Assembly: GCA_010093705.1 (NCBI GenBank)
Contig: MU006091.1
Coordinates: forward strand, 1,240,001 to 1,304,000
Direction of reading: 5' to 3'
Source of the DNA: Patellaria atrata CBS 101060
Taxonomy: Eukaryota
Length of the DNA: 64,000 nt
The translations under genes were made by a program, and so were the position numbers. Within the stretch, counting starts at the first letter, position 1. The number at the start of each line of letters is the position of its first letter. Of the stretch, positions 10,301 to 56,306 are shown piece after piece. The notes under the pieces are model-generated. The model did no database searches. It saw only the letters and a program-made list of their open reading frames with translations, and was not told the origin of the DNA.

Positions 10301-12061
10301 CTTCTTGGGGTCGTCTGTGATCAAGAATACGGACACCTAGCAGTTTGCCCTTCATTGCACATCGAGGTGGCTGAGCCGCTATAGATCTCCTTCGGGGGCT
10401 CTACCGGGGCAATTTTTGCTTGTAAACCACTTTTTCATTGATGTTCTCACCATGAGTGGGAGCTTGAGGAAAGGGTTCTTGATCTCGTCGACACATGCAG
10501 ATTCAGCCTATAGCCCCTGCTAAAACGCGTGTATTCCACCATAGTCATAAATAATTTTCTTAAAACGTACAGTGTGTTCCCGGTTCGCTAGAGAACTTTG
10601 TAGATTCTAACTTCTAATCCTAACGGTCGCAACTGGAGCGTAACGCTACTACCGTATGCAAAAAGAAGTGACTAGTTTCTCGGCCTTGTCTCACTGTACC
10701 ATTCCACCCATTTGTTGGAGAATGTATTTAACATACCGTCGCATGCCTTACGCACACTTGTGGCTCACCTCTACTTGCGGCATCGTAAAGAGGGACATCA
10801 CAGAGTCGTCATCCTATGACGCGGAGTACTTATCGAGTCACCGCGAGGTCCAAGGCAGCAAGCTGAACAGGGAGAAGGGAAATTGTAGCTCTATGGTGAT
10901 ATTGCTGTGTGTTCCGATTACGACAAACGCCGACCCTGTTGTATCAGAATCGGCTTCAATCATTACCTTATTGGCTTGTCGCTTTTTTTTTAACGCCCTT
11001 CTGCGACTAAGGGAATTAGGTTTCGTGTTGCGAAGATGATACCCAACTTCGTACTCTGTACTGTACGTTAAGATAGACGAGAAAATAAGCTCTGGAATCA
11101 CAGCACGTTTTTCCCGTAGATTTAGTGGCGTTTATAGCTGCCAGATGGCAGATTGCCCATTAACCCATTTTTTGGTATCTACGCCCACCTGCCGTATGGG
11201 GATTAAATAAAGGGATATCGAGAAACGGAAACATGGCGAGCGAGTTATGAAAACGCGCCTGGGTACGGGCGGTACTTTACTTACTCTAAGGTACACGGTA
11301 AAATTTTCTTTTCTGTCTCCTCTTCGTAACCATTTCCCGTTTTGTTCTGTCTAAAGCTTACATGTCGGTAAGTCGGTACTTTCGGTCGCTCGATTCGTTG
11401 CAATCCCATCCATATAATTCATCGTTATTGGTTCGATTAGAAGCGAATTCGAAGCGATGTGGACGGGATGTGTAAAGTCAGGTCGGTGCACGGATGGTGG
11501 ATGCTTGACATTCCGAGCATTGCGAGGGCTTCCACATATACTCGTGCCGGACGAGACTAATAATATTTTGTGGTTGTTTGCATCGCAAGGCAGCTGTGCC
11601 AGACATATTACAAGCCATCCCTCAGTGTAGACTTCATCTTCACTTCATCTTCCTTTCAGCTTTCTCACCCAGCCTTACACGCTTCTACAGCTTTCTGTCA
11701 TTTTATCTTAGGGACCCTTTATTTTGCCTGACATCTTTGACAGACGTGAACTATTCCTCACTTGCTCTCTTCTCTATCTGCACTAGGTTGCCACAGCTGT
11801 ACACAAACTCTGCATTGCTATTATATACCGGATACCTTAACATGTAGTTATTTCCTATCAAAAGTCAGTCGCACCTTCCCGCCATCTCAACACTTCCTAC
11901 TTCATCTTTTATTACCCCGTCACTCATCTATACGAGCCGAGTCAACAGTTCATAAGGTTCTTTCCCAATCTGGCCGAGGGTTTGACAAATTCCTTGGCTT
12001 CTACATCGGTACTTTCTATACTTTAGACTGACGGGCCTAATCCCCGGAACTTCCATGCGAG

Positions 12062-15000
12062 ATGGGTATAAATGAATCTCCGGATTCAAGTTCGGGCACG
12101 TCTTCCATCGACCATGTTACCGCCGACAATGAGAAGACCATCGCAGGACAAGTACCAGCGCCAACGGACCCTGCTGGTGTTAATGTCCTATCAAAGTTGG
12201 ATTCGCACGTTGTCAAACCTATCGATGAGAAGAAACAGAGTGCCTTGGACCATCTACCCGAGGACGAGCAGACCATCATCAAACGTCAAGTGGATACCCC
12301 TGATATCAAAGTCACCTATTTCACCCTTTACAGATACGCGACCCGGAACGATTTCATCATCATGTTTATTTCGGCCATCTGTGCTATTGTGGCTGGTGCT
12401 TTGTTACCACTGATGACTGTAATCTTTGGCCAGCTTGCTGGGACCTTTCAAAATATGTTCAATGGGACGCTGAATCAAGACGAATTCAACGACGAACTAG
12501 CTGACTATACTCTCTACTTTCTTTACCTAGGAATAGGAGAATTTGTGATGACCTACATCTTCACAGTTGGCTTCATTTATGTTGGAGAGCATTGCTCCGG
12601 AAAGGTCAGAGAGCATTACTTGAAAGCGATTCTGACGCAGAATATTGGTTTCTTCGATAAGCTGGGTGCTGGAGAGATCACTACCCGTATCACTGCGGAT
12701 TCAAATCTGGTTCAAGATGCTGTTTCTGAGAAGGTTGGCCTTACTCTGAACGCGGTCGCTACGTTTATTGCGGCCTTTGTCATCGGCTTCATCAAATACT
12801 GGAAACTTACCTTGATCCTGACGTCCACTGTGGTTGCTATCACTGTCATTATGGGAGGTGGTTCGAATTGGATCATTAAATTCAACAAGCAGTCTCTCAA
12901 CTCCTATGCGGAAGGTGGTACGGTAGCAGAAGAGGTTATGAGTTCAATCAGGAATGCAACGGCTTTCAATACCCAAGAAAAACTTGCTAGGCAGTACGAT
13001 AGCCATCTGGCAGAAGCTGAAAAGTGGGGTAAGAAAATGAAGTATGTTCTTGCCGTCATGCTTGGAGGTATGATGACTGTCATCTACTTGAATTACGGAC
13101 TCGCATTCTGGATGGGCTCAAGATTCCTGGTCAGCGGTGATGTAGATCTGTCTGATGTCCTCACCATCTTGCTTTCCATCATTATCGGCGCTTTCTCTCT
13201 CGGACACGTGGGGCCATGGGTACAGGCTTTCCAGACTGGAACTGCTGCAGGAGCGAAAATATTCAATACAATTGATAGAGAGTCTCCCTTGGACCCCATC
13301 TCAATCGAAGGCGCAACTCTCGATAATGTTAAGGGTACTGTGGAACTCCGTGGTGTTAAGCATATATATCCTTCCCGTCCCGAGGTTATTGTCATGGAAG
13401 ATGTCAACCTTCTCATTCCCGCTGGCAAAACTACAGCATTGGTCGGTTCCTCCGGCTCCGGGAAGAGTACAATCGTCGGTTTAGTCGAACGTTTCTACGA
13501 TCCCGTTAAAGGTTCAGTGTTTCTTGATGGCCACAATGTCCAGGACCTCAATCTCCGCTGGTTACGTCAACACATCTCACTGGTCAGCCAAGAACCGACA
13601 CTCTTTGCCGTCTCGATCTATGATAATATTCGACATGGACTCATTGGTACTGAATATGAGAAGATGGGCGAAGAGAAGGTCAGAGAATTGATAATGGAAG
13701 CTGCTAGGATGGCTAATGCCTATGACTTTGTTACTCAGCTGCCCGAAGGGTTCGATACCAACGTTGGTGACCGAGGATTTCTGCTATCAGGAGGCCAGAA
13801 GCAGCGTATTGCTATTGCCCGAGCAATCGTCAGTGACCCCAAGATTCTACTTTTAGATGAGGCGACTTCCGCATTGGATACCAAGAGCGAAGGTGTTGTG
13901 CAACACGCACTGGACAAGGCTGCTCAAGGGAGGACCACAATTGTTATTGCCCATCGATTATCGACCATCAAAGATGCGGATAACATCGTTGTCATGTCGC
14001 ACGGGAAAATCGTTGAGCAAGGCACCCATTCTGAGTTGATTAGCAGGCGAGGTACATACCATAAGTTAGTCGAAGCTCAGCGTATCGCGGCCGCCAAAAA
14101 CTCTCCAGCGGACGAAGAGGAGGCTTTGCTTAGCGAGAAGGATGCAAACTTAGTTGAGGGACAAAACGGAGACAATGCTGTTGATCCGGACGATGCAGAC
14201 CCATTAGGCTTGAAGAGAACACAGACTTCAAAGTCCAAAGCGAGTGTAGCCCTGCAAGGCAAACAGGCCGAGAAGACGAGACAATACTCACTCTGGACAT
14301 TGATCAAGCTAATCGGCAGCTTCAATAAGCAAGAATGGCATATCATGCTCTTTGGTTTATTCTGGTCTATCATTGCAGGAGGAGCCAACCCCGTACAAGC
14401 AGTTTTCTTCGCAAAGTCAATCGTGGCGCTCACATATCCGCCATCTATGTACGACAAACTTCGTAGTGACGCAAACTTCTGGTCACTCATGTACCTCATG
14501 CTTGCGCTCACGCAACTTTTGTCTTTCACCGGCCAAGGAATCTGCTTCGCTTATTGTTCTGAGCGACTCATACACCGCACCCGTAATAGAGCGTTTAGGA
14601 CGATACTACGTCAGGACATTCAGTTCTTCGACCGCGAAGAGAACTCTGCTGGTGCTTTAACTTCATTTCTCTCAACAGAAACGACGTATTTGGCTGGTCT
14701 CAGTGGATCAACTCTAGGCACGATCCTCGTCGTCCTGACAACCCTAATTGCCGCTATCTCCCTTTCACTTGCCATCGCATGGAAGTTATCTCTCGTCTGT
14801 ATCTCCACCATTCCTCTCCTCCTGGGTGCCGGTTTCTTCCGCTTCTGGATGCTCGCCCGTTTCGAATCGCGCGCAAAGAAAGCCTACGAAAGATCCGCTA
14901 ATTATGCCTGCGAAGCCACCTCCGCGATCCGGACTGTCGCCTCCCTCACCCGCGAAGAGGAAGTCATGGCTCAATACCACGAACAGCTCGTGTCACAAGG

Positions 15001-16110
15001 TGCAAAGAGCCTTCGCTCAGTCCTCAAATCCTCGACACTTTACGCGGCCTCTCAATCGCTCATGTTCCTCTGCTCCGCGCTCGGATTCTGGTATGGTGGC
15101 AGACAAATGGCGAGCGGCGAGATCTCTATGTTCCAGTTCTTCGTTACGTTTTCTGCTATTATTTTTGGTGCGCAGTCCGCGGGGACAATCTTCTCGTTCG
15201 CACCAGATATGGGAAAAGCTAAGCATGCAGCTACTGAGATGAAAACTCTGTTCGACCGTAAACCCGACATTGACTCTTGGTCTACGGAGGGGAGAAAGTT
15301 GAGCGGGATGGAGGGCCACATCGAGTTCCGCGACGTCCACTTCCGCTACCCCACCCGTCCCGAACAACCAGTGCTCAGGGGTCTTAACCTCGAAGTCAAG
15401 CCCGGGCAGTACGTCGCGTTGGTCGGCGCATCGGGTTGCGGTAAATCCACCACAATCGCGCTTATGGAACGGTTCTACGATCCCCTCGTCGGCGGTATCT
15501 TCGTCGACGGCCAGGAAATTTCAGGCCTCAACATCAACGATTATAGAAGCTATCTCGCGCTGGTGAGTCAGGAGCCGACGCTGTATCAGGGAACGATCAG
15601 AGACAACGTCCTCCTAGGCTCCGATAGGGAGGATGTGAGCGAAGAGGCAATCGCAAGGGCGTGCAAGGACGCGAATATCTACGATTTCATCATGAGTTTA
15701 CCGTGCGCGTTCCCCCTCCCCCAACCATGACAATGACGTACTAACAATCGTGTAGAGAGGGCTTCCAAACAATCTGCGGCTCCAAAGGCGCACTCCTCTC
15801 CGGTGGGCAGAAACAGCGCATCGCCATCGCGCGCGCGCTCCTGCGGGATCCGAAGATCCTGCTCCTCGACGAAGCTACGTCCGCGCTTGACTCGGAGAGC
15901 GAGAAAGTCGTTCAGGCTGCTCTCGATGCCGCGGCGCAGGGTAGGACGACGATCGCAGTCGCGCATCGACTGAGCACGATCCAGAAGGCGGACGTGATTT
16001 ATGTGTTTGATACGGGTAGGATCGTGGAGAGCGGGACGCACAACGAACTCCTGGCAAGGAAGGGACGGTATTTCGAGTTGGTGAATTTGCAGAGTTTGGG
16101 GAAAGCGTGA
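12062..16110 (+). CDS. mdr1: ABCB full-length multidrug transporter (P-glycoprotein/MDR1 type), ~1331 aa
   Basis: TMD-NBD-TMD-NBD; Walker [10 protein letters not shown] and GASGCGKST, two [14 protein letters not shown] signatures, [12 protein letters not shown]; one intron at 15703-15755; stop TGA at 16108-16110. Confidence 0.95.
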
Positions 16111-20581: not shown

Positions 20582-23500
20582 ATGTTTGCGAAGTGCAAGG
20601 GCCCAATATGGAGGCTTGATGACTTTTCGCGCTGTTTCGAACAAGAGTATGAGTATCTAATGCCGTCAAGATACACCATCTACTAACTTATTTTCCATAG
20701 TTACCTGCAAACGTTATTTCCTCTAATAGTCTGCGGCGCATCTCTAAGTTACCTATCAATCCAAATCTTCCGTGCTACTGCACGTTCAAAACAACGCCAC
20801 GCATACCAACCTTTGAAGAATACCGGCCATGTGGATTCCAGAAATGGTTTGGATCCTCGGCCTAACGGACCCTTCTCCGATGAGGACGACCCAGATTCAG
20901 ACGACGAATTCTTACGGAATGAACGGTCTGCTCTTCACAGAGCACCGAGCAATGCAAACGAATCATTCATACAAGTGGATAGGCCTCGAGGGGAGTTACT
21001 CGTCGTTGTTGTGGAAGAGCTGGCCGTTTTGAGCGAGGTCGGAATACACCTAGCAGTCGTCTTGACGGAATCATGGGGGCATAGAGGTCGTGTTGCGGCA
21101 ATATCTACCCTTGCGACATGGGTTTATGTCGCCATACTAGCATCGCTCCGGCTGCTCTTGTCCAGTTCCTCAAGGTTTTCCTTCCCGAGGCTCTGGTATC
21201 ACACTTCGTTCATATACATATTTCTATGGATCTTTACAACTCTGATGTTCCGTTCAGCAATCATCCATCCACTATCCAGACTGAGCCGGGATCTGACGAT
21301 AGCGAACTTCTCTCTTGTCTCTTTGCTAGCTACCATTGCCCTGACGTCACGAAAGGGTAACAAGGCTGTCGAGTTAGAATACGAGGGAGATCTAGAACCC
21401 TCTAAAGAGCAAACAGCCAGTGTCCTGTCATTAGCAACCTTCGGGTGGGTTGATGGCATAGTCTGGAAGGGTTACAAAAAGACTTATGAACTTTCCGATG
21501 TGTGGAATCTGGCCCCAAAGGACAAGGCTGCTTGGGTACTCAACGATTATAGACAAGTCAAGAAAACTACGATCCTCGCCTGGCACATTTTGAAATATTT
21601 CAAACGTGGACTTATAATTCAAGCTCTATGGGCCGCATTTTCTGGTCTCCTTCTCTTTGCCCCTACGCTGCTTCTTAAGGCTATACTTGAATATGTCGAA
21701 CAACCTGAAATGACTCCACAGAATGCAGCATGGTTCTACGTCATCCTCCTTTTCGTCTCGGGTTGTGCATCAGCGCTTGCTGATGGCCAAGCACTTTGGA
21801 TTGGCCGGAAGATATGTATCCGTATGAGGGCGGTCATCATCGGTGAGATTTACGCAAAGGCTCTCAAACGAAGAGTATCTGCGGGTGCCGACAAAGTCTT
21901 GGGCGAAAACAAGAAGACAAAAGGTGGGAAAGAGTCCACCAAACAGAAAATGAAGAGGGTGTTGTCATTCGGTCGAAAGAAGAAGGCGGAGAACGCTAAG
22001 AATGATGGCTCCCTAAAGTCTGAAAGCTCTGAACAAGTAACTTCTGGTGCTATCATAAATCTAATGGCGGTGGACTCGTTCAAAGTCAGCGAGATCTGTG
22101 CTTATCTCCACTTTCTCTGGGCGAATACCCCCGTCCAGGCTGTGGTTGCAATTTTTTTGCTATATCGAATCCTAGGCTACAGTTCGATTGCCGGTATTGG
22201 GATGATGGCTCTGTTACTCCCGATCAACCTTACAATCTCAAAGAAGTTTGCGAAGATCCAGAAACAAATTCTTGCTGCAACCGATGCCCGGATCAATACA
22301 ACTAATGAAGTGCTCAGTAACATCCGGATCATCAAGTACTTTGCTTGGGAGCAACGATTCATGGGCGTCATCGATGAAAAACGCTCGGTTGAACTCAAGC
22401 ATCTTCGTAGGCGATATACGTGGTGGGCTATAGCAGCAACTGTGTGGTCTGGAGCACCAATTATGATTACTTTTCTGTCCTTCTTCGTTTACACGGTGAT
22501 TGAAAAGAAAGATCTTATACCCTCGGTGGCTTTTACTGCGTTGTCATTGTTCCAGATTCTAAGGATACCTCTCGACCAGCTTGCCGACATGGTTGCACAC
22601 GTCCAAGAATCGAAAGTATCTGTTGATCGTATAGAAGAATATCTGAAGGAACCTGAAACAGACAAATACAGACAACTACATAAGCGTGACCTCGATGAGA
22701 ACGGAGAACCGATTATCGGATTTGACAACGGTACCTTCTCCTGGGGTAGTAATGATCCTAACGACAAAGATGCTGCGGATGCATTCAAGATGATCGGACT
22801 CAATATGCGATTTAATGTAGGCAATCTCAATGTCGTTGTAGGCCCAACTGGGTGCGGAAAGACATCGCTTCTCATGGCTCTCTTGGGTGAAATGACTGCG
22901 TTGGAAGGCCGAGTTCACTTACCGGGAGCCGTTAGCCGAGAAGAACTCAAGCCGGATCCCGAGAGCGGCTTGACCGAGAGCGTCGCATACTGTGCACAAC
23001 AAGCTTGGCTCGTGAACGACACCATCAAGGAGAACATTCTATTCGCTGGCCCATGGGATCCGAAACGGTACCAAGATGTTATTGCCGCTTGCTCTCTGAA
23101 ACGGGACTTGGAGATCCTCGACGATGGGGATCAAACCCTAGTTGGTGAGAAAGGAGTCACGCTATCCGGTGGTCAGAAGCAACGTATTTCGTTAGCCCGC
23201 GCCTTGTACAGCAAAGCAAGGCACGTCCTTCTCGACGATGTATTAAGTGCTGTCGACTCTCACACAGCTAAATGGATCTTCGACAAAGCTATCTTGGGAC
23301 CATTGATGTACAATCGAACCTGTATCCTTGTAACACATAATGTTACCCTCTGTCTACCATATGCACAATTTGCGGTAGTTCTTGATAACGGAAGAGTCGT
23401 GGCGCAAGGTTCAGCTCACGAGGTGATCGATTCGGGAACCTTGACTGAAGACCTTACCAAGTCGCGGCCTACATCAACAGTCCCTTCAAGAGTTCCTTCC

Positions 23501-25807
23501 AGGTTACCCTCTGATGATGGTTCCGAATTAATACCAACCGAACTCCATCAGCCGGATGCGGTAACTGAAGGTGCCAATCCAGGTTCGGATACGGACGTCA
23601 CATTAGTCGGAGAGCCTGCTATGGGGTCGACATTGGATAAGATCCCGGATGCCGCACGCAACAGCCCTCATCTTGAGACAAAAGCCACGGGAAGTGTGAA
23701 ACTCAATATCATCATACTGTACCTACGCTCAATGGGACCTTGGTACTTTTGGATGATTGCGGCGCTAGTCTTTGCATCACAACAAGCTTCCTCCGTTGCA
23801 ACAAATGTCTGGATTCGGGCATGGGCCAACGCGTATGCTGATAAGCAAGTGAGCTTTGCCACTTCTCATAAAGCTAGTCACGTAACACACTTCGGCCCTA
23901 TCAGTGGCCTTGGTACTTGTCTCACGAGCGGTTCTTGTGTATGGCCCTGGCCGACTAAGTCGATTTCATCTACGGAGGAATACGATGTAAGTTGGCAAAC
24001 GCGCGTTTTCTCCGGGGCTTCAGAAGTAGATGCTGGCTACTACCTTACCGTGTACGCAACACTGGGTCTATGTTTCATGGCCGTCACTCTCTCCCGAGAG
24101 GCTGTTCTATTCGGAGGATCTCTCCATGCATCCAGGATGATTCACACTCGTCTTATCTCAAGCGTTACCCATGCAAAATTCCGCTTCTTTGATTCCACAC
24201 CACTCGGCCAACTCATGAATCGGTTTTCAAAGGACATCGAAGCCGTCGATCAGGAAATTGCTCCCGTCGCTGTTGGCGTAGTGCATTGCCTTGCGTCCAT
24301 AATCACTATTGTCATTCTGATCTCAGTTATTACACCGGGGTTCCTCATAGCGGGTGTTTTTATTACCGCATTATATTTCCTCATCGGGAAATTCTATATA
24401 AACTCTTCGAGAGATCTCAAGCGGTTGGAGTCTGTACAACGTAGTCCACTGTATCAACAGTTCGGCGAAACTCTTTCAGGAATGACTACCATTCGTGCGT
24501 ATGGTGATGAACGTCGATTCATCAGGGACAACCTCAACCGCATCAACACCCATAACCGACCTTTCATCTTTCTTTGGGCAGCCAACCGATGGCTTGCCTT
24601 GAGGGTCGACGTTGTCGGAGCGATGGTCTCTTTCTTCGCGGGCGTGTTTGTTGTGCTTAGTGTTGGTAGGATTGATGCAGGTGCGGCTGGTTTAGCCATG
24701 ACCTACGCAGTGACGTTCACCGAAAATGTCCTTTGGTTTGTGCGGTTATACTCTTCTAACGAACAGAACATGAACTCAGTCGAACGAATCAAAGAATACC
24801 TTGACGTAGAGCAAGAAGCCCCGCCGATCATACCAGATAGCCGACCCCCTGCAAACTGGCCTAGCAAAGGATCAGTAGAGTTCGCTGATTATAGCACCCG
24901 TTATCGACAAGACTTTGGTATGGTGTTGAAGAAGGTGTCTTTCAAAGTCTTACCGGGGGAGAAGGTGGGAGTGGTTGGTCGAACAGGTGCAGGCAAAAGC
25001 TCACTTGCCTTGGCTTTGTTTAGAGCACTCGAGGCTGAAGAGGGAAGAATTCTTGTTGATGGACTTGATATTGGAACAATTGGCCTCCAGGATTTACGAG
25101 AGAATATAGTCATGGTCCCACAGGATCCTACGCTCTTTACCGGAACCGTCAGAAGTAACCTGGATCCTTTCAGCTTGTTTACAGACGAGGAGATCTTTAC
25201 TGCGCTCCGAAGGGTGCAACTTATCGGACCTGCGGGTTCTCAGCCTGCATCTGGGAGTGGCAGTCCTAATGGTACTGCCTCTAATTCACCCCCTCCTTCT
25301 TCAAACGGCAACAAGAAGCGAATCGATTTCTCAACTGATACAGTTTCTTCCTCGCCCACCACGACTACCGATACCCTTGGATTAGAGAACAAAAATATTT
25401 TCAATACGCTTACATCACCTATCTCCGAGTCTGGTTCCAATCTTTCCCAAGGCCAACGTCAGCTTCTATGTTTAGCACGAGCCTTACTCAAGGAGCCAAA
25501 GGTTCTTCTGATGGACGAGGCTACCGCATCCATTGACTACGCAACGGATGCCAAGATTCAGGAGACGATCCGTGAGATCAAGAATACCACCATCACTATT
25601 GCGCATCGATTGCAGACGATCATCGATTACGACAAGGTCATAGTCTTGGAGAAGGGTGAGGTAGTGGAATTCGGTAGTCCATGGGAGCTTATAAAGAAGG
25701 AGAAAGGGAGATTCAGAGGGATGTGTGAGATGAGCGGCGATCTAGAGGGGTTAGAGCATGGAGCAGAGGAAGCATCCAAAGCGAAGAAATTGGTGGACGA
25801 TACCTAA
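20582..25807 (+). CDS. YBT1: ABCC/MRP-family transporter, Ybt1/Bat1-like (vacuolar bile acid/conjugate transporter), ~1723 aa
   Basis: Exon 20582-20646 (MFAKCKGPIWRLDDFSRCFEQ), intron, exon 20701-25807; NBD1 GPTGCGKTS / [14 protein letters not shown] / LLDDVLSAVDSH; NBD2 GRTGAGKSS / LSQGQRQLLCLARA; NRFSKDIEAVDQE and SRDLKRLESVQRSP ABCC motifs. Confidence 0.9.
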
Positions 25808-34399: not shown

Positions 34400-35921
34400 A
34401 TGGCCGAACCCATCAGGAATAAGAAAGTCGACAACATCACCGCACCGTACGTCTGCACATTCCTTAGTTCTGCCTCAACTGCTTCCCCGCCGCGCCCCTC
34501 CCTTTGAGAGATATCACCGCCCCTCAGCAGTCTCAAACACGCAACTGACATTAACATGGCTACTAGGACTCCTCAGAACACACCTGCAAATGCAGCCCCG
34601 ATATCTTCAAGAGCACAACAGCCCGGTGTAGCAAGTATCAAAGAAGGTGAGTTAAAATTTGCCCTAGAAGCCTTGGATGTTGCGCGTCTGGAGCCACTCA
34701 AGCTAACCAGATTCTTCACCGCTAGAGGACCTCGACCGCGCTGCTGCAGCGTCTTTATTTGCACAGAATCCCGCACTCGTCTCCATGATTCAAGGCAAGC
34801 TTGGCTCGCTCGTCGGCCGTTCATCTGGTTACATTGAGTCGTTACCTCCGATCGTTCGTCGTCGCGTTGCGGGACTCAAGGGTGTCCAGAAGGAGCATTC
34901 AAAGTTAGAAGCAGATTTCCAAGAAGAAGTATTGCAACTTGAGAAGAAATACTTCGCCAAATTCACACCTCTTTATGAGAAGCGTTCTAAGATCGTCAAC
35001 GGTGCTGCGGAACCAACGGAAGATGAAGTGAAGGCAGGAAAGAATGAGGATGAAGCAGAATCCGAGGAGACCGAGAAAGTCGAAGAGACTGGAGAGGCCC
35101 CTAAGGGTATCCCAGAGTTCTGGCTGTCCGCGATGAAGAATCAAATCTCTTTGGCAGAGATGATCACCGATCGAGACGAGCAAGCTCTCAAGTCTTTGAC
35201 CGATATTCGAATGGAATACCTTGATCGTCCTGGATTCCGCTTAATCTTCGAGTTTGCTGAGAACGAATATTTCACCAATAAGACAATCACCAAGTCTTAT
35301 TTCTACCAAGAGGAGAATGGTTACGGTGGAGATTTCATCTACGATCATGCAGAGGGTGACAAGATCGATTGGAAAGCAAACAAGGATCTGACCGTCAAGA
35401 TCGAAAGCAAGAAGCAGCGGAATAAGAGTAAGTACAGCACAGATACTGGGAACTTACCTTAACTGACATCATTCTCTTCTAGACACCAAGCAGACTCGTG
35501 TAGTCAAGAAGACAGTTCCCACCGAATCATTCTTCAACTTCTTCAACCCCCCAAAGCCTCCAACTGATGAGGATGATGATGAGGTTTCATCTGATATCGA
35601 GGAGCGCCTCGAACTCGATTACCAACTTGGCGAAGATATCAAGGAAAAGCTCATTCCTCGTGCTATTGATTGGTTTACCGGTGAAGCGCTTCAGTTTGAG
35701 CAGCTTGATGACTTCGACGAGGGAGAGTTTGAGGATGAGGACGATGAGGAGGAAGATGACCTGAGTGAAGACCGCGATGATGATGAGGACTCAGATGAAG
35801 GCGTACGTATAACCTCTTTACAGTCATGAAAAGCTAACTTGGGAATCTGCCCTCTAACATGGTTACATAGGACGATGGCTCTAAGCCTAAGCAAGAAGCT
35901 GCAGAGTGCAAGCAAAGCTAG
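34400..35921 (+). CDS. NAP1: Nucleosome assembly protein 1 (histone chaperone)
   Basis: [16 protein letters not shown] start; [51 protein letters not shown]; acidic tail; C-terminal CKQS CaaX-type motif. Confidence 0.95.
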
Positions 35922-38991: not shown

Positions 38992-41900
38992 ATGGCTCAT
39001 ATTTACGATGTCGGCACCCGTGCGTGGCAGCCCGATGCTACAGAAGGCTGGATTGCCTCTGAGGTGCAAGATAAGGTGGTCGACGGGGACAAAGTCACGC
39101 TGGTCTTCAAACTGGCAAATGGAGAGGCAAGTCAGCACAGCTGAAATACCGAGAGGATGCAATGTAGCTGACGACATTTATAAAGACTAGAACGGTAACA
39201 ACTACTGCTGCTGCTATCCAAGATGGCAATAATGGGGACCTCCCCCCTCTAATGAATCCGGCTATGCTTGAAGCTAGCGACGACTTAACGAATCTCTCAC
39301 ATCTCAACGAACCGGCTGGTAGGATCATACGGATAGTGTAGAGGGTTATATACTAATGTTATGGACATAGTATTGCAAGCTATCAAACTTCGTTATGCCC
39401 AGAAAGAAATATATACCTACAGTGGTATTGTCCTCATTGCGACTAACCCTTTCGCGAGGGTGGATTCTCTATACGTCCCGGGAATGGTACAAGTTTATGC
39501 AGGGAAGCAGAGGGCATCTCAAGCGCCCCACCTGTTCGCCATCGCTGAGGAGGCATTTGCGTAGGTCTAATGCTCTTTAGCTCGAGTGAAGGAAAATGCT
39601 AACCTGCAAACAGGGACATGCTTCGGGATAACAGGAATCAGACTATTGTGGTCTCAGGTGAATCTGGTGCTGGTAAGACCGTTAGCGCAAAGTACATTAT
39701 GAGATACTTCGCAACTCGAGAGTCCCCAGATGCGCCCAGTAAACGGACTAGGAATCGATCAGATGCCATGAGCGAGACTGAAGAACAGATTCTAGCCACG
39801 AATCCTATTATGGAAGCGTTCGGTAATGCTAAAACGACGCGAAATGACAACTCTTCAAGATTTGGTAAATATATTGAGATCATGTTTGACAGGAACACGG
39901 ACATCATTGGCGCAAAGATTAGAACATACCTACTGGAACGCTCCAGATTGGTGTTTCAGCCCCTCAAGGAGAGGAATTATCACATCTTCTATCAGCTAGC
40001 CGCAGGAGCTTCGGACGCTGAGAGAGAAGAACTAAGCCTCCTACCGGTTGAGCAGTTCGATTATCTCAACCAGGGGAGTTCGCCAAAGATCGATGGCGTA
40101 GACGACAAAGCTGAATTCATAGCGACTAAGGATGCTCTAAGTAAGATTGGCGTAGACTCCGGCGCGCAGAGCCAAATATTTCGTATATTAGCCGCTCTTC
40201 TCCACCTAGGTAATGTCCAAATCAAAGCAACACGGACCGAATCTACCCTTGCACCGGACGATAAGTTTTTGGTCACTGCTTGTAAACTTCTCGGCATCAA
40301 TGCGACCAACTTCGCTAGATGGACGGTAAAGAAGCAGCTGATCACACGAGGAGAAAAAATCACATCGAATTTGACCCAGCAACAAGCCGTAGTCGTAAGG
40401 GATTCAGTTGCGAAGTTCGTCTATTCTAGTCTTTTCGACTGGCTTGTCGAAAACATCAATCATGGTCTGGCTACCGAGGAAGTTCTTAGCCATGCTCACT
40501 CTTTCATTGGTGTTCTCGATATTTACGGGTTCGAGCACTTCGCTAAGAATTCGTTCGAACAATTTTGTATCAACTATGCTAACGAGAAGCTGCAGCAAGA
40601 GTTCAACCAACACGTGTTCAAGCTGGAGCAGGAAGAATACCTTCGCGAAGAAATCGATTGGACGTTCATCGACTTCTCTGATAACCAGCCCTGCATTGAT
40701 CTCATTGAAGGCAAGTTGGGCGTGCTCTCACTCTTAGATGAAGAATCTCGACTTCCCATGGGCTCGGACGAGCAATTCGTAACAAAACTACACCATAACT
40801 TTGGTTCGGACAAGCAGAAGTTTTACAAGAAGCCCCGCTTCGGCAAATCCTCTTTCACAGTATGCCATTATGCAGTTGATGTCACTTACGAATCCGACGG
40901 CTTCATTGAAAAGAATAGAGATACGGTCCCCGACGAGCATATGGAAGTACTTAAAGCGTCTACCAATCCGTTCTTGGGTGAGGTTTTAGAAGCAGCATCA
41001 GCAGTAAGAGAGAAGGAATCCGCTTCCGTCGCCAAACCTGGTGCAATGGCCGCCTCTGGCCGAAGGATTGGCACCGCTGCTAACAGAAAGCCAACATTGG
41101 GTGGCATATTCAAGTCTTCTCTTATCGAACTCATGAACACCATCAACTCTACCGACGTACACTATATTAGATGTATCAAGCCCAATGAGGCAAAGGCAGC
41201 ATGGAAGTTCGAGGGCCCAATGGTATTGAGCCAGCTACGAGCTTGTGGTGTCCTTGAAACGGTCCGTATCAGTTGCGCAGGGTATCCCACGAGATGGACA
41301 TATGAAGAATTCGCTTTACGGTACTACATGCTTGTGCCATCTAAATCATGGACTCCCGAAATCAGGAACATGGCAAACGCAATCTTAAGCAAAGCGTTCG
41401 GCGCGGGAAAGAAAGATGCGGACGATAAGTACCAAATGGGCCTAACTAAGATCTTTTTCCGTGCAGGTATGCTTGCATACCTAGAGAATCTGCGAACGAC
41501 CCGATTGAATGATGCTGCTATTATGATCCAGAAGAATCTCCGCGCCAAATATTGGCGGCGCGTGTTCCTCGAAGCCAGACAGTCCATTATCACATTCCAG
41601 TCAGCGGTACGAGGTTCCATTGCGAGACAACATGCGGAGGAGGCGCGGCAAGTTAGAGCGGCAACCACGATCCAGAGAGTCTGGCGCGGGGCGAAAGCGC
41701 GCAAGTTCTATCATTCAACTCGACGCAACGTCATCCTATTTCAATCAGCCGCGAAGGGTTACTTATGCAGAAAGCACATCCTTGACACGCGACTTGGTAA
41801 CGCAGCAGTACTCATTCAACGAAACTGGCGATCTGCTAGGCAGCTCAAGGCCTGGAGGCAGTATCGCCGTAAGGTGGTCATCATACAGAGTTTGTGGAGA

Positions 41901-43950
41901 GGAAGGAAAGCTAGGAAGGGTTATAAGGGCATGCGTGAAGAAGCTCGCGATCTCAAGCAGATCTCGTACAAGCTTGAGAACAAAGTTGTCGAGCTCACAC
42001 AGTCCTTAGGTACCATGAAGACTGAGAACAAGGACTTGCGAAGGCAGGTGCAGAATTACGAAAGTCAACTCAAGTCGTGGAAGAGTCAGAGTAGCGCACT
42101 CGAAGCCAGGGCGAGAGAGTTGCAGGCAGAAGCAAATCAAGCCGGTATCACTGCTGCACGTCTAAGCGCAATGGAGGATGACTACAAGAAGTTGCAACAC
42201 AGTTTCGAAGAGAGTACAGCAAATATGCGTCGCTTGCAAGACATAGAGAAGGGTCTACGGGAACAATTACGTTCCACATCGGAGGAACTCACCGTTGCAA
42301 AGAGACGAGGAAGTAGCTTTGAGAGCGAGAAGAACTCGTTACGTCAACAGCTCATTGATATGCAAGATCAGCTCGAGTTGGCGAAACGGTCCGGTCCTAT
42401 CAACGGGGAAATTCTCAACGGCATATCACACGCGCCCCCAAGTGGCCTCATCAATCTTGTGTCCTCCAAGAAACCCAAGAGACGAAGCGCTGGCCCTGAA
42501 CGTATCGACATGGATCGTTTCAGCTCCGCATACAACCCTCGACCCGTGTCGATGGCTCTTCCAGGTACTACCGTCCATCGCCAGAACCTCTCTGGGTCAA
42601 CATTCACACCTGGACTTGACAATATTGAGCTCGAGTTGGAGAATCTTCTTTCTGATGAAGATGCTCTCAACGACGAGATCACGATGGGTCTCATTAGGAA
42701 CCTCATGATTCCCTCTCCAAGTACAACGCCACCTCCAACGGACAAGGAAATTTTATTTCCTGCATATCTCATCAATCTCGTTACATCAGAGATGTGGAAT
42801 AATGGCTTTGTGAAGGAGTCTGAACGGTTCCTTGCAAATGTCATGCAATCGATCCAACAGGAGGTCATGCAACACGATGGCGAAGATGCGATCAATCCAG
42901 GCGCTTTCTGGTTATCTAATGTTCATGAGATGCTGTCTTTTGTGTTCTTGGCAGAAGATTGGTATGAGCAACAAAAGACTGAAAACTATGAGTATGATCG
43001 TCTCCTTGAGATAGTCAAGCACGATCTGGAAAGTCTTGAGTTCAACATTTATCATACTTGGATGAAGGTACTGAAGAAGAAGCTGCAGAAGATGATCGTT
43101 CCAGCAATCATCGAGTCTCAATCGTTGCCAGGCTTCGTTACAAACGAGAGCAATAGATTCCTCGGCAAACTCCTACAATCAAATAACACACCGGCTTTCA
43201 GCATGGATAACTTACTCAGCTTGTTAAACAACGTATACAAGGCTATGAAGGCTTACTATCTAGAAGATTCGATCATCACGCAATGTGTAACGGAACTATT
43301 GCGGTTGGTTGGTGTCACTGCCTTCAACGATCTTCTGATGAGAAGGAACTTCCTTTCGTGGAAGCGAGGCCTGCAAATCAACTATAATATCACCAGGATA
43401 GAAGAGTGGTGCAAGAGCCATGAGATGCCGGAGGGCACTCTACAACTGGAGCATCTAATGCAAGCGACGAAGCTTTTGCAACTTAAGAAGGCAACTCTCA
43501 ACGACATCGAAATCATCCAGGATATCTGTTGGATGCTCTCCCCCAACCAGATTCAGAAGCTCCTGAACCAATACCTTGTGGCAGACTACGAGCAGCCCAT
43601 CAATGGTGAGATCATGAAAGCAGTTGCTTCCAAGGTAACGGAGAAGAGTGATGTTCTCCTGTTGACCGCTGTGGATATGGATGACAGTGGACCTTATGAG
43701 ATTGCCGAACCCCGTGTAATCACCGCTTTGGAGACCTATACACCATCATGTAAGGCTTCATTTTGAACTGTATGCAAATATGTTACTAATAACTTTCCCA
43801 GGGCTCCAAACACCTCGTCTGAAGAGGTTAGCAGAAATCGTCTCGGCGCAAGCTATCGCGCAACAAGAGAAGCTTGAGTTTGAGCATGTTAATGGTAACG
43901 GAACCGAGGCTGCGCAAGGTCTCGCCATCAGTGAGGTTGAGGTTGTATAG
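38992..43950 (+). CDS. MYO2: Class V myosin (Myo2/MyoE), ~1580 aa
   Basis: Exons 38992-39126, 39186-39318, 39371-39560, 39614-43749 and 43802-43950; DDLTNLSHLNEPA, P-loop GESGAGKT, NDNSSRFGK, LDIYGFE, IQ repeats, coiled coil and DIL tail (FNDLLMRRNFLSWKRGLQINYN); first intron is GC-AG. Confidence 0.97.
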
Positions 43951-52380: not shown

Positions 52381-54701
52381 GATGTTGAATTGAAGTTGAG
52401 TGCGGAAGAGCTTCGGAGGAGCTTGGAGTTGAGCACGGACGGTAGCTTTTTGAGACGACATGGCAGCATTAAATAGCATCATCACAGCTCAGGAAAGTAT
52501 ACTTAGCAAAATATTCCCCTCATAATACTGGAGATGCTATCTTATATTCGGTTGTACCGACTTTTCAATATTTGCTGCTTAGACGGGGTTAGAACCAGGA
52601 CTCCGTTGATGAGGACCGTTAACATTACAAGCTTGGTAGACCAGAACTCAGCGAGGAAAGATAATCTACGTATAAAAACTGTTGAGACCGTTATCTCGCT
52701 TACTGGAGGGCATTTCAGCCTGGTAATAGCATTATTTCACATATGGGTGGCGTGGATGTGGTGCGCTATAATGGGTATGTGATGTGAAGGTAACCCTGAG
52801 CGTTAATGATACTTGAGTATGGGAATTTGGGGAGAAGTGAGAAAATTGATGCGATAATCTACGAGTCTAGTTTTCTTTCAATTTACTAGCACTAGTAGTA
52901 CTCAAATTCGAATCAGTACCAACAGCAGTGGACTATCCCAACCACTTGGATATTCACATAGAAGATAATCGATAGGAAATGAAAGGAAAACAGCCATGGA
53001 TCCCGCTCATCCCATTCCCCTGAGGCAAGGAAATCTAAATCATCCAGGGTTGATATAATGCACTGGTACTCTATCAGCTTTTTCGGCGTCTCTCCCTTGA
53101 CTAAGATCCTACTTCGTACTTCCGGTTGTAATTCAGACAAGTTGCCTATTCCACGGGTCGGTCGGTTTAATCGGAATGGCTGGGGACCCATGAAGATGGA
53201 GTTTATAAAGGGTACGAAGAACGAGATGCCGGAATCCCTGGATGAAGTCAGTTTGGATAGAGTCCCGCCAACCTCTATTCTCTCAGGTCCAACACATGCC
53301 TGAGTCCCGTCATTTTGTTAAAGAGGAATGCAAACCTTGTTATGAACAAGAAGCAGAAGGGTTAAGACAAGGGGTTGGATAAACGATTGGGTAGAAGAGT
53401 TTTGGGGGGGTTGATATGATATGTATAGATCGATAGAGGTCGAGAAAAAGGATCGCATGGTTGGATAAAAGTGTGTACGAAGGGCGGCGGTTATGATGAT
53501 ATAATATTGATTATTTATCATGCGATGTAGATACGAAGTGATGTGAAAGATATGCAAAATAGAAGGTAAGTGATGTTAGATAGATATAATATGAACTAAC
53601 TTAACATAGAGGTGGATAGAGCAAGCGGTGGAAAGTGTCATGGGTCAACCTCAGATGAAAGCTGAAAGGTATATTGCTATATGTACATGAAGTTTAAACT
53701 TAAGGAAAGAAAGTGTTGAGACAGCCTATGCTGTTCTACTAAAGTACAGTATGACTAAGCCGCTGGATCATCCAAGGCACTGATACCTATCGGGTCTGAC
53801 CCGTGAGAGAAAGAAACTACAACGTTCGATGGTCCCGAACTGTGGTAAGAATGCATATAAATTCTGATGATGGGAAAAGATATCTGATATGCAATGAGAT
53901 ATAAGAGTGAAAACACGATATTAGGGATGCTCTCGAGATAAGACTAGAGGGGGGCAATGCAAAAGATACCAGGTGTTATAGATGACCGAAGATGGAAAAA
54001 ACAGAATAAGATGCTAAGAATTAGATGCTAAAAGCTGACCGAAGAGCGGAAACTTACGTGAAGAAGCTGAATTTATACCTAGAGCGTTGGTTGAATTTCC
54101 ACTGTGCCTTGACGAATTCTGGGCGCAAGATACAAAATTCCGATTTGAGAGGCGAACCATGGTACTCCTCAATGCTTAAAACCCAAAATGGCATTGTTCG
54201 ATTTCGTGCCCAAGAGCAAGAGCCGGCCGGGGTTCAGTAGCTGTCAAACGAATTATAGGTCGGTATTCGGAATAAATCCGACTTCGAATTTCTCAGATAA
54301 AAGGAAGATGGGGTATAGATTAGTACCCGGATCCTGGAAGTGGATAAATATACCTGATATTTGTTGCGAATCCGCGATAGTCCCTCCTCCTAGATCTTAT
54401 CCTTCCCGAAGTAGTCTCTATAGAGTACCCATAACACGAGAGACTCTCACCTCCCCTACCTTTTCAACAAGCTAGGATTTGAACGAAGGACAAACATAGA
54501 TGGGCAAGAAAGGAGTTGGAGAAGCTTATAGTAACTTCAACTATTAGCGAAAGGATCTATGATAAGAATATGGACGGATATATTCCAAACATATACAGAA
54601 GTCATTCAGTCTGCGCACCCTACGCTGTCATGTATCATCAAATCGGATGAAGGACAACCAAGCAGTAAAAGAGAAATAAAAAATAAAAAATAAGGAATGT
54701 C

Positions 54702-54866
54702 AAAAATCAGAAAACCAAAACAGTCCCCACGCCCTCCGAAGAGGAACGTGGTAGTCTGCCGGACCCTCCAACCGGGGGCCGAGGATCGAACCTAGGACGT
54801 GCTGATGACTGGACCCGATCGGTGTGGTGGGAATTTCCCACCACTAGGCCATAAATCCTGGGTTAT
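54702..54866 (-). ncRNA. Putative RNA polymerase III-transcribed structured ncRNA (tRNA-type internal promoter, not a canonical tRNA)
   Basis: Minus strand: TATAAA 54895-54890; A box TGGCCTAGTGG 54851-54841; B box GGTTCGATCC 54792-54783; hairpin GTGGTGGGAAATTCCCACCAC; 3' hairpin capped by C(UUCG)G; T4/T4/T5/T6 runs from 54720. Confidence 0.6.
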
Positions 54867-55428
54867 AGAAAGTAGTCACGCGTTATTAATTTATAAGCTG
54901 TAGGGCGAAAGATCGCGTTGGGGACGTGGTTGAGTGTACCTTCGCAGAGGGTGTGGTGGAGTAGGAACTATAAATTCGCTAGCAGTCGATTTGTAGTGCT
55001 AGCAGCACCTGTACATGTCTTGCTTGTACCTTAAAGAGGAGAGTAATAGTTTTTACGTTTTTAATATCAATTCGCACTCATTAAGGGTTCAGTGGAATTT
55101 GTACTATTCATAGAGCAGTGTGGTGTTCCTGATGTTGACTCCGACCAATCTAATTAAAAACCTAACGCGATCCATCTGCTAATCTTGTGCATACCTCCAT
55201 ATCAGGTACCTGAAATTGTGACTCTATACAATGATTTTTCTCCATGAAAGGGCTAAAAAAGCCTGTCACGTGATGAATTAAGCTACCTTATCTTATCTTG
55301 ATCAGATCTTTCCGTCTCAACTTCACCTCTTCTCGACACCATCTTCCTGAGCCAGCCTTCTATCATTGAATCTCGCTCTCCCCAATTCTCCCAATATAGA
55401 ATTAAAGGTCCTGGAGGATAAAAAGGGG

Positions 55429-56306
55429 ATGGACGTAGTAGGAGATGCTTCGGGCAATGACTCTATCACAACACCTACAACTACTCTTATTTCCTCAACC
55501 TTAAATGTCCTACTTCTCATTCTTTCCTCAGTTTCCTATTACATTCTCTACGTGCCTCTTCGCTTCATTGCTTTGATTCTTTATGCAGTGCTTAGTAGCA
55601 TTCTCAAAGGCGTCTGGAGCATAGTTTATTTTATCCTATTACCCGGGATCGTTATTGTGGAATGGCTGGGACGGATGGCGGGTTGGGTGGGCGCATTTGT
55701 GGCAAGGTTTGAGGTATGTAGTTCCCTCTTACTCTGATGTTCTTGTTGTATCATGTCCCGTTTCCGTGAATCCCCTGGTTGTCGTATTGCTTCCGTGATA
55801 GGGAGACAGGGAGATTGGGGAGTTGCAAGGTCATTTCTTGAGTATGCATAAACGAAGGAAATGTGTAAAGACTGTTTGAGATTCTATTTAGGCTTCAATA
55901 CTATACTAGACTTCAGTCGCGTATTCATTCAAAACACAATACGTTTTGCTAATCGCAAAGGAGGAATCATCTGGACTTATTTCTTTCTCAATAGACCCTC
56001 TATATCTATCTCGGCATTGCATCCCTCATCGGCGCAGCTTTTGGCCTCTTACTATATTATCTTTCTACGCTCCTCACCTCTACGCTCAACCTCGAAGGCT
56101 CCTCCTCATTAACAGGGTATGAAAATGGGCGCACCATCAAGGCTTATAGGGAGCAACGGCGCCGCAAGAAATTGCAAGAGAGCGGATTAGACAGACTAAA
56201 GTTACACGCGATTAGAACCGGGCGAGTAGATCCGGAATATCTGGAAACTCGGGAAAGAGGTCAAATGGAGGAGACGATCATGGAGGAGGAGGATTCAGAG
56301 TTCTGA
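55429..56306 (+). CDS. Hypothetical fungal membrane protein, ~198 aa
   Basis: Exon 55429-55713, 281-nt intron, exon 55995-56306; hydrophobic helices, junction FE|TLYIYLGIASLIG, acidic end TIMEEEDSEF. Confidence 0.75.

Follow-up and report, generated by a model that had tools for sequence, protein, structure and literature searches.

What is encoded by a locus that has the promoter of a tRNA gene and lacks the fold of a tRNA? The question is posed by a short element on the minus strand of a 64,000-nucleotide stretch of the Patellaria atrata CBS 101060 genome (assembly GCA_010093705.1, contig MU006091.1, positions 1,240,001 to 1,304,000), which we call the window and in whose numbering coordinates are given. 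An initial annotation had described the element as an unannotated RNA polymerase III (Pol III) gene for a compact, highly structured, stand-alone RNA, and had named a tRNA-derived short interspersed nuclear element (SINE) as the main alternative. The element is not a single gene, it is one of a family of about 60 dispersed copies. We consider it reasonably probable that this family is functional, and that it consists of protein-binding Pol III RNAs with a promoter derived from tRNA genes and with a 3' module that docks a protein. The basis of this reading is seen in the sequence: the copy number, the DNA shared upstream of the start, the kept promoter boxes, the covarying stems and a nearly invariant 3' module.

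The dispersed family and its promoter

In the window copy, a TATA-like box (TATAAATTAATAA, 54895-54883) lies about 30 nt above the start predicted from spacing (54866-54864). It is followed by an A box (54851-54841) and a B box (54792-54783), which are 48 nt apart, and by stacked oligo-T terminators (54720-54678), namely T4 runs at 54720-54717 and 54714-54711, a T5 run at 54706-54702, and T6 runs at 54690-54685 and 54683-54678. All of these parts, as well as the hairpins discussed below, are found on the minus strand where the initial annotation had placed them. Its statement that the element is no tRNA gene also holds. ARAGORN reported no tRNA gene in the window or in the fetched stretches of any of the 49 loci scanned, and the 5' end of the RNA pairs with bases 5' of the B box, leaving no cloverleaf with acceptor stem and anticodon arm. 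Likewise, no catalogued RNA family was recognised by Rfam 15, which was scanned for the window copy only, and which gave no match at the gathering score in the whole window and none at E<=10 between 54500 and 55100. The same lack of an Rfam match disposes of a 5S rRNA gene or 5S-derived repeat, and a covariance model of the family (R1) is without match at 6 of 6 5S loci. Readings as a hairpin, hammerhead or hepatitis delta virus (HDV) ribozyme, or as signal recognition particle (SRP), vault, Y or small nucleolar (snoRNA) RNA, were dropped by eye against known consensus features, and Rfam agrees for the window copy.

Copies were sought in the same genome (28.7 Mb, 127 contigs). The Pfam content of the window is that of an ascomycete with introns, and the relatives of one window protein point to the Dothideomycetes. 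A BLAST search with the element returned 30 matches at 25 distinct places, the main ones with 72-86% identity. A pattern for the 3' end had 36 exact matches (reversed control: 0), and a 14-mer with one mismatch allowed had 60, compared to 9 in the control. R1, which was built from 22 copies, matched 49 of 64 sources at E<=0.1, these 22 included, and 7 of 20 further sites at E<=0.01. From 20 new 14-mer sites, 11 were dropped as chance or ambiguous matches (loci L083-L088, L090, L092, L094, L096 and L099), about nine being expected from the control; 14-mer sites at window position 35509 and on G000:C33 lie outside the examined set. Three loci (L058, L089, L091) were assigned to the family by eye. 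The total is 56 loci according to the covariance model and 59 with the members added by eye, on more than 20 contigs, and is a lower bound, R1 having been applied to fetched loci. The word "stand-alone" is contradicted by these at least 56 dispersed copies. As a type-2 Pol III gene for a structured RNA, on the other hand, the locus gains credit from the comparison, in which boxes, upstream TATA-like box and covarying stems are kept across copies.

By eye, about seven subfamilies can be told apart, besides hybrids and singletons. They comprise the window type (L001-L004, L006, L007, L009), a type associated with a miniature inverted-repeat transposable element (MITE), the L008/L053 variant, a short-headed type with two middle hairpins (L018, L020, L047, L049, L050, L054-L057, L061-L063), and three divergent groups (L051/58/60/93/97, L091/95 and L064/81). 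The TATA-like box is found about 30 bp above the start in nearly all copies; in an alignment of 20, all copies have its A (54894 in the window), and at least 90% have the T at 54895. The sequence CACGTG or CGTGAC is often found above this box in family members, in many paralogues at a distance of about 25-30 nt. Its counterpart in the window, a CACGT-containing element at 54929-54922, was picked out by eye and is weak.

Shared anatomy and covariation

The head domain of the RNA is closed by a stem, P1, which pairs the 5' end (54862-54855) with bases just before the B box (54798-54791, running into the box), and which encloses the A box, a subfamily-specific hairpin and single strand. Two-sided changes occur in 5 of 10 P1 pairs, and 81.7% of the cells are paired. 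The closing stem had been noted in the initial annotation and is present, with a C.A mismatch at 54860/54793 where the window copy has undergone a G>A change at 54793. Within the head (54850-54812), the family alignment pairs GGCCU (54850-54846) with 54816-54812 to form P2 (82.9% of cells paired), which bears the inverted repeat at 54844-54824 as hairpin P3 (94.4%). The AUGGC/GUCAU stem proposed earlier is an alternative to this pairing, and by eye it also pairs in L002, L003, L008, L009 and L053. Between P1 and the 3' module, other subfamilies have none, one or two GC-rich hairpins; the variable middle hairpin of the window copy is GGCCC/GGGUC at 54780-54762.

The 3' module (54759-54720) lies directly before the T run. 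Its terminal hairpin, with the UUCG loop at 54740-54737, had been described correctly, whereas the best-kept element of the family had been missed. This is a GCAG/CUGU helix (54759-54756 with 54723-54720), which closes an asymmetric loop beneath the terminal hairpin, the sequence of the latter being free. The loop is usually A(U/A)GUA over GAA, and in the window copy ACUA over GGA; the variants AUGUA, AAGUA, ACUA, AUUA, or AGUA (L091, L095) are found opposite GAA. In 32 copies of the 3' domain, 92.9% of 464 cells are paired and 9 of 15 pairs show two-sided changes, a result that 0 of 500 shuffles reach; in slid controls, 37-59% of the cells are paired. The lower stem of the hairpin has two-sided changes in 8 of 8 pairs, and in the closing helix 4 of 5 pairs never vary. 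For the head, two-sided changes are seen in 7 of 23 pairs (8 of 500 shuffles as good), and for the arms of the short-headed type (D type) in 5 of 20 pairs (5 of 500). For 12 copies, the best BLAST match was confined to the head; 8 of these have an intact or nearly intact module (4 of 4 free copies, 4 of 8 MITE-borne ones). A fold and an end piece that are kept despite the drift of the letters suggest a working RNA family, rather than junk.

The expression "highly structured" is borne out by pairing at the level of the family, less so by the window copy taken alone, which folds only modestly better than its shuffles (171 nt: z -1.36, 22 of 200 shuffles equally good; 149 nt: z -2.09, 7 of 200). 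Among single copies, 9 of 13 fold at z<=-2, down to -6.9. RNAalifold, run on alignment A2, returned 15 pairs only, among them a 5'-3' pairing that was not adopted; the number is low because the variable middle misaligns. R1 was built on this structure and for that reason works chiefly as a profile of the sequence.

Four sequences have been derived for the sarcin-ricin (loop E) motif, among them AGUA/GAA, and in modelling AUUA/GAA fits it as well (PMC1865062). We infer that the fixed loop folds as loop E. The likeness to loop E of 5S rRNA, where an AGUA-like strand faces GAA at the foot of a hairpin (PMC1865062), is found within the same genome, where the ordinary 5S genes (13 matches) have AGUA...GAA in the same arrangement, and is one without homology. 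The dispersed 5S genes are themselves of at least two clearly different sequence types, most divergent in the 3' half (L065:1501-1620, L069:1501-1620). Separately, L091 and L095 carry, in the single strand before the 3' side of P1, the sequence CUUAC, which is complementary to the GUAAG of 5' splice sites; it was noticed by eye and may be due to chance.

Spread of the copies

If the family were an old one of tRNA-derived SINEs with a T-rich tail, its 3' hairpin would be the signal for the reverse transcriptase of a long interspersed nuclear element (LINE), and its subfamilies would stem from several master copies. We regard this as unlikely. The dispersed copies do fit the head-body-tail plan of SINEs in having a tRNA-type head, an unrelated body and a conserved 3' stem-loop (PMC5786205), and they share the tRNA-type promoter head and the dispersal with SINEs such as AfuSINE2 of Aspergillus fumigatus (PMC5063351). 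In the same species, some SINE candidates are without target-site duplications (PMC5063351). Moreover, old duplications decay, and the genome holds LINE remains. From the features by which SINEs are judged, the tRNA-type internal promoter in dispersed, multiple copies was found, and three others were not. Many copies with target-site duplications had been taken as the mark of a SINE by the initial annotation. The copies are indeed many, whereas none of 23 non-MITE copies has a direct repeat that abuts both the start and the T tail, among the five largest repeat families listed at each locus (seed 7). The tail of the family is T-rich; an A-rich or simple-repeat tail is typical of SINEs, and T-tailed SINEs exist in plants.

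Homology extends 50-170 bp above the start across copies (L049/L055: about 170 bp; L047/L050: about 90 bp), whereas the 5' flanks of SINEs are very diverse (PMC7279448). This argues against an RNA intermediate, which would not carry upstream DNA. The window copy is itself part of a segment (54933-54625) that is duplicated at the DNA level in L002 (G000:C21) with 76.7% identity over 313 columns, from about 65 bp above the start to about 90 bp below the first T run. The copies without head (L023, L089, L098) retain the upstream TATA or CGTGAC sequence, and therefore look like internal deletions rather than 5' truncations; what lies above L023 is a kinase gene and not a LINE. No tail shared with a LINE was found: the 3' module is present at 0 of 2 LINE-endonuclease loci of the genome, both of which are broken, LINEs without that domain not having been sought. 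One of the two (L100:1737-5476) has pieces of endonuclease, reverse transcriptase and RNase H, and the second, more decayed one (L101) lies near solo long terminal repeat (LTR) copies. The shared upstream DNA and the lack of duplications at the transcript ends speak against the SINE as the main alternative.

Part of the spread is by DNA transposition, since 15 copies adjoin MITE ends, a terminal inverted repeat (TIR) of 19 bp or more that starts with GGGAGCTG and that was found 26 times (control: 0). Examples of the RNA-bearing MITE with two ends measure 339 and 368 bp. Among 18 new TIR sites, 7 have the RNA gene and 11 have none. An 8-bp duplication is present with 7 of 8 bases at the RNA-bearing copy L021 and displaced at L016, and no clear one was seen at L015, L024 and L029. 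TIRs of this kind also bound a sibling MITE, which measures about 520-560 bp and has no RNA gene; of its three two-ended copies that were read, two have a perfect 8-bp duplication. This sibling family (L030, L032, L033, L035, L036, L040-L043; for example L033:501-1022) has TIRs starting with GG and internal tandem repeats. Merlin elements are described as having GG-starting TIRs with 8-9 bp duplications (PMC8101967), and the carrier MITE, not the RNA gene, resembles Merlin/IS1016-type DNA transposons in both respects. An IS1595-type transposase had no match in the genome, and other superfamilies with 8-bp duplications could also have supplied the carrier. The B-box core TCGA is intact in 15 of 15 rows without TIR and in 4 of 7 with TIR, and free copies look better preserved than MITE-borne ones. 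Since the MITE-associated RNA type also has free copies (L011, L012), it is most likely that the MITE captured one RNA gene. The window copy has no such ends: no TIR was seen for it in an inverted-repeat survey around 13 loci, and the MITE TIR is absent from the window at 3 mismatches.

The MITE raises the possibility that it is the DNA itself that matters, either as landing pads for TFIIIC and Pol III (boundary or chromatin elements) or as passive cargo of a DNA transposon, the RNA being a by-product. The kept boxes and TATA-like box would be explained, and so would the 15 copies by MITE ends and the decay of the MITE-borne copies. However, two-sided changes in hairpins outside the boxes, as well as a fixed loop by the terminator, are signatures at the RNA level, and most copies, including the window copy, are without TIR. 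We consider this explanation distinctly improbable.

As for the neighbourhood, a solo-LTR-like repeat of 171 bp (window 53636-53806), with a TG start, a short terminal inverted repeat and a 5-bp flanking duplication, lies 900 bp from the RNA gene and is unrelated to it in sequence. With at least 41 copies of 88-100% identity and uniform ends, it shows by contrast what a young repeat looks like in this genome. An open reading frame at 55351-55737, which holds what had been called the 55429 gene, reads away from the RNA gene, and Pfam gave no match for it. Elsewhere in the window there are ordinary fungal genes (12041-15730, 20687-25807, 39603-43766), among them two for ABC transporters and one for a myosin with a DIL domain.

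Possible role and known relatives

A functional, protein-binding RNA family could be pictured to work as follows. A family with a tRNA-type promoter would have spread by DNA-level duplication, one subfamily doing so as MITE cargo. TFIIIC on the A and B boxes and TFIIIB on the TATA-like box would start transcription, in the window copy near 54866-54864, and the RNA would end in the first T runs, with a length of about 145-165 nt for the window copy and of about 110-190 nt in the family, and with a run of U at its end. Such a start, and an end at oligo-T, are established Pol III biology. La would hold the U tail. Next to the tail, a second protein would dock on the loop-E-like loop and the GCAG/CUGU helix, because no other part of the RNA keeps its letters as well as its pairing. 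The head and the middle hairpins would be specific to subfamilies. By analogy with stand-alone type-2 RNAs of rodents and viruses, the role is most likely that of an abundant scaffold or protein-sequestering RNA.

Several points weigh against this interpretation. The evidence for function comes from sequence within one genome, transcription being a prediction from it, and the protein partner is a guess. The covariation values are inflated, the rows being related paralogues and the structure being drawn from the same sequences; 18 of the 32 rows of the 3'-domain test entered it through a pattern in which the closing helix is obligatory, so that its invariance is partly by construction. By the measure of further pair types, neither the head (87 of 500 shuffles) nor the short-headed type (121 of 500) is above shuffles, and 4 of 13 single copies do not reach z -2. 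In its commonest form, AUGUA over GAA, the loop is one base longer than the canonical motif. Deletions or degeneration affect several members (L006, L017, L023, L058, L089, L097, L098). The window copy differs from the family majority by four CpA>TpA or TpG>TpA changes (54885, 54867, 54852, 54793), one of which breaks a P1 pair, and carries GGA instead of GAA at 54725. Changes of this kind are made by repeat-induced point mutation (RIP). The window copy may be a weakened or fading member; alternatively it may be working, its boxes, TATA-like box and hairpins all being in place.

A different role would be that of precursors of microRNA-like RNAs (milRNAs), Pol III hairpins that Dicer or exonucleases would process for loading onto Argonaute. 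The main Neurospora milRNAs derive from Pol III transcripts, and one is tied to tRNA genes (PMC3547838); the P. atrata genome encodes an Arb1 Argonaute-chaperone protein. However, milR-1 is described as having neither A nor B box (PMC3547838), and the hairpins of the family are short and keep their pairing while their sequence is free, whereas a guide strand would need the reverse. The proposal is very improbable. Least credible of all, with scarcely any probability, are solo LTRs of a Helenus-like terminal-repeat retrotransposon in miniature (TRIM) with a tRNA-like promoter inside the LTR: they would account for the shared upstream DNA and are known in fungi, but in the cases described these are basidiomycetes (PMC10886601), the upstream homology ends differently in each pair, and the family alignments show by eye no common sharp ends, no TG...CA termini, no 5-bp duplications and no two-LTR copies with primer-binding site and polypurine tract.

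Among known RNAs, the closest parallel to a protein-binding family is found in rodents. 4.5SI and 4.5SH RNAs come from lineage-restricted, stand-alone type-2 Pol III genes with A and B boxes, a conserved TATA-like box at about -30 and, further up, a factor site at about -50; they are SINE-derived, 94-98 nt long, and present in several to hundreds of copies, as three clustered genes or in tandem arrays (PMC7279448). The fungal family has the same promoter plan and is also multi-copy, and differs in its roughly 60 dispersed genes, its about seven structural subfamilies and its loop-E-like 3' module, with no sequence relation shown. Adenovirus VA RNA, the EBERs of Epstein-Barr virus (EBV) and rodent BC1 RNA are about 150-170 nt long and strongly folded, have a type-2 promoter and a U tail, and act by binding proteins. 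They are viral or mammalian, with one or two genes each. The 5' end of the fungal RNAs would pair just before the B box, and not with the 3' end as in these RNAs. By analogy, the family would work most like 4.5SI and 4.5SH and like VA, EBER and BC1 RNAs, yet it is a member of none of these groups. Compared to AfuSINE2-type SINEs, it is without target-site duplications, shares upstream flanks and ends in a T run.

The 3' end invites comparison with 7SK RNA, which has a conserved 3' hairpin beside its U tail that is bound by a La module and an xRRM (PMC10083321, PMC8917221). The family would likewise consist of Pol III RNAs with a conserved 3' hairpin by the U tail. However, 7SK is much longer and metazoan, and its xRRM site is the apical loop, whereas in the family it is the internal loop that is fixed, the apical one being free. 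The P. atrata genome encodes La, and also a MePCE/Bin3 domain and an xRRM of the LARP7/Pof8 type, with one match each over the cut-off at G000:C14:378078 and G000:C6:789273 respectively, which permits the comparison and goes no further; for Ro60, the partner of Y RNAs, there is no TROVE match in the assembly, absence from which is not proof. The fission yeast proteins Pof8 and Bmc1 work with telomerase RNA and U6. In a gene at L105:1495-3165, a La motif is fused with an Arb1 (Argonaute chaperone) domain. Going further, the family could be a class of fungal ribonucleoprotein RNAs with a constant 3' handle, bound by La or by a Pof8/LARP7-Bin3 pair, and with interchangeable heads that show subfamily-specific single strands to different targets. 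It would then be a fungal counterpart of 7SK or an unrecognised class of guide RNAs, diversified and spread in part by a DNA transposon. This extension is, in our estimate, quite unlikely.

In the accessible text of two screens for fungal structured RNAs, supplements aside, there is no family like this one (PMC8216456, PMC5640933), and the 17 structures of one of them are mostly single-copy (PMC8216456). No published description of the family was found in the literature, most subscription papers being outside the coverage. Searches with the 3' pattern gave three matches in metagenomes, all inside protein-coding sequence and without boxes or hairpin, and one match in a viral scan; all are attributed to chance, and these collections, with their few fungal genomes, say nothing on conservation. 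Two sequencing runs (X1, X2) are probably DNA from one sample, with flat contig depth, and have no bearing on expression.

The present analysis adds the size of the family, its subfamilies, the covariation, the fixed module, the tests for retroposition and the MITE. It brings to light a MITE that carries a whole predicted Pol III gene. The fixed 3' module could serve as a single probe, and as a single bait for pull-downs, for the entire family. If the interpretation as a functional RNA family is correct, its 60 genes would be the third dispersed class of Pol III genes in this fungus, besides those for tRNA and 5S rRNA, and it would follow that an RNA gene under selection can be classed as a SINE in fungi.

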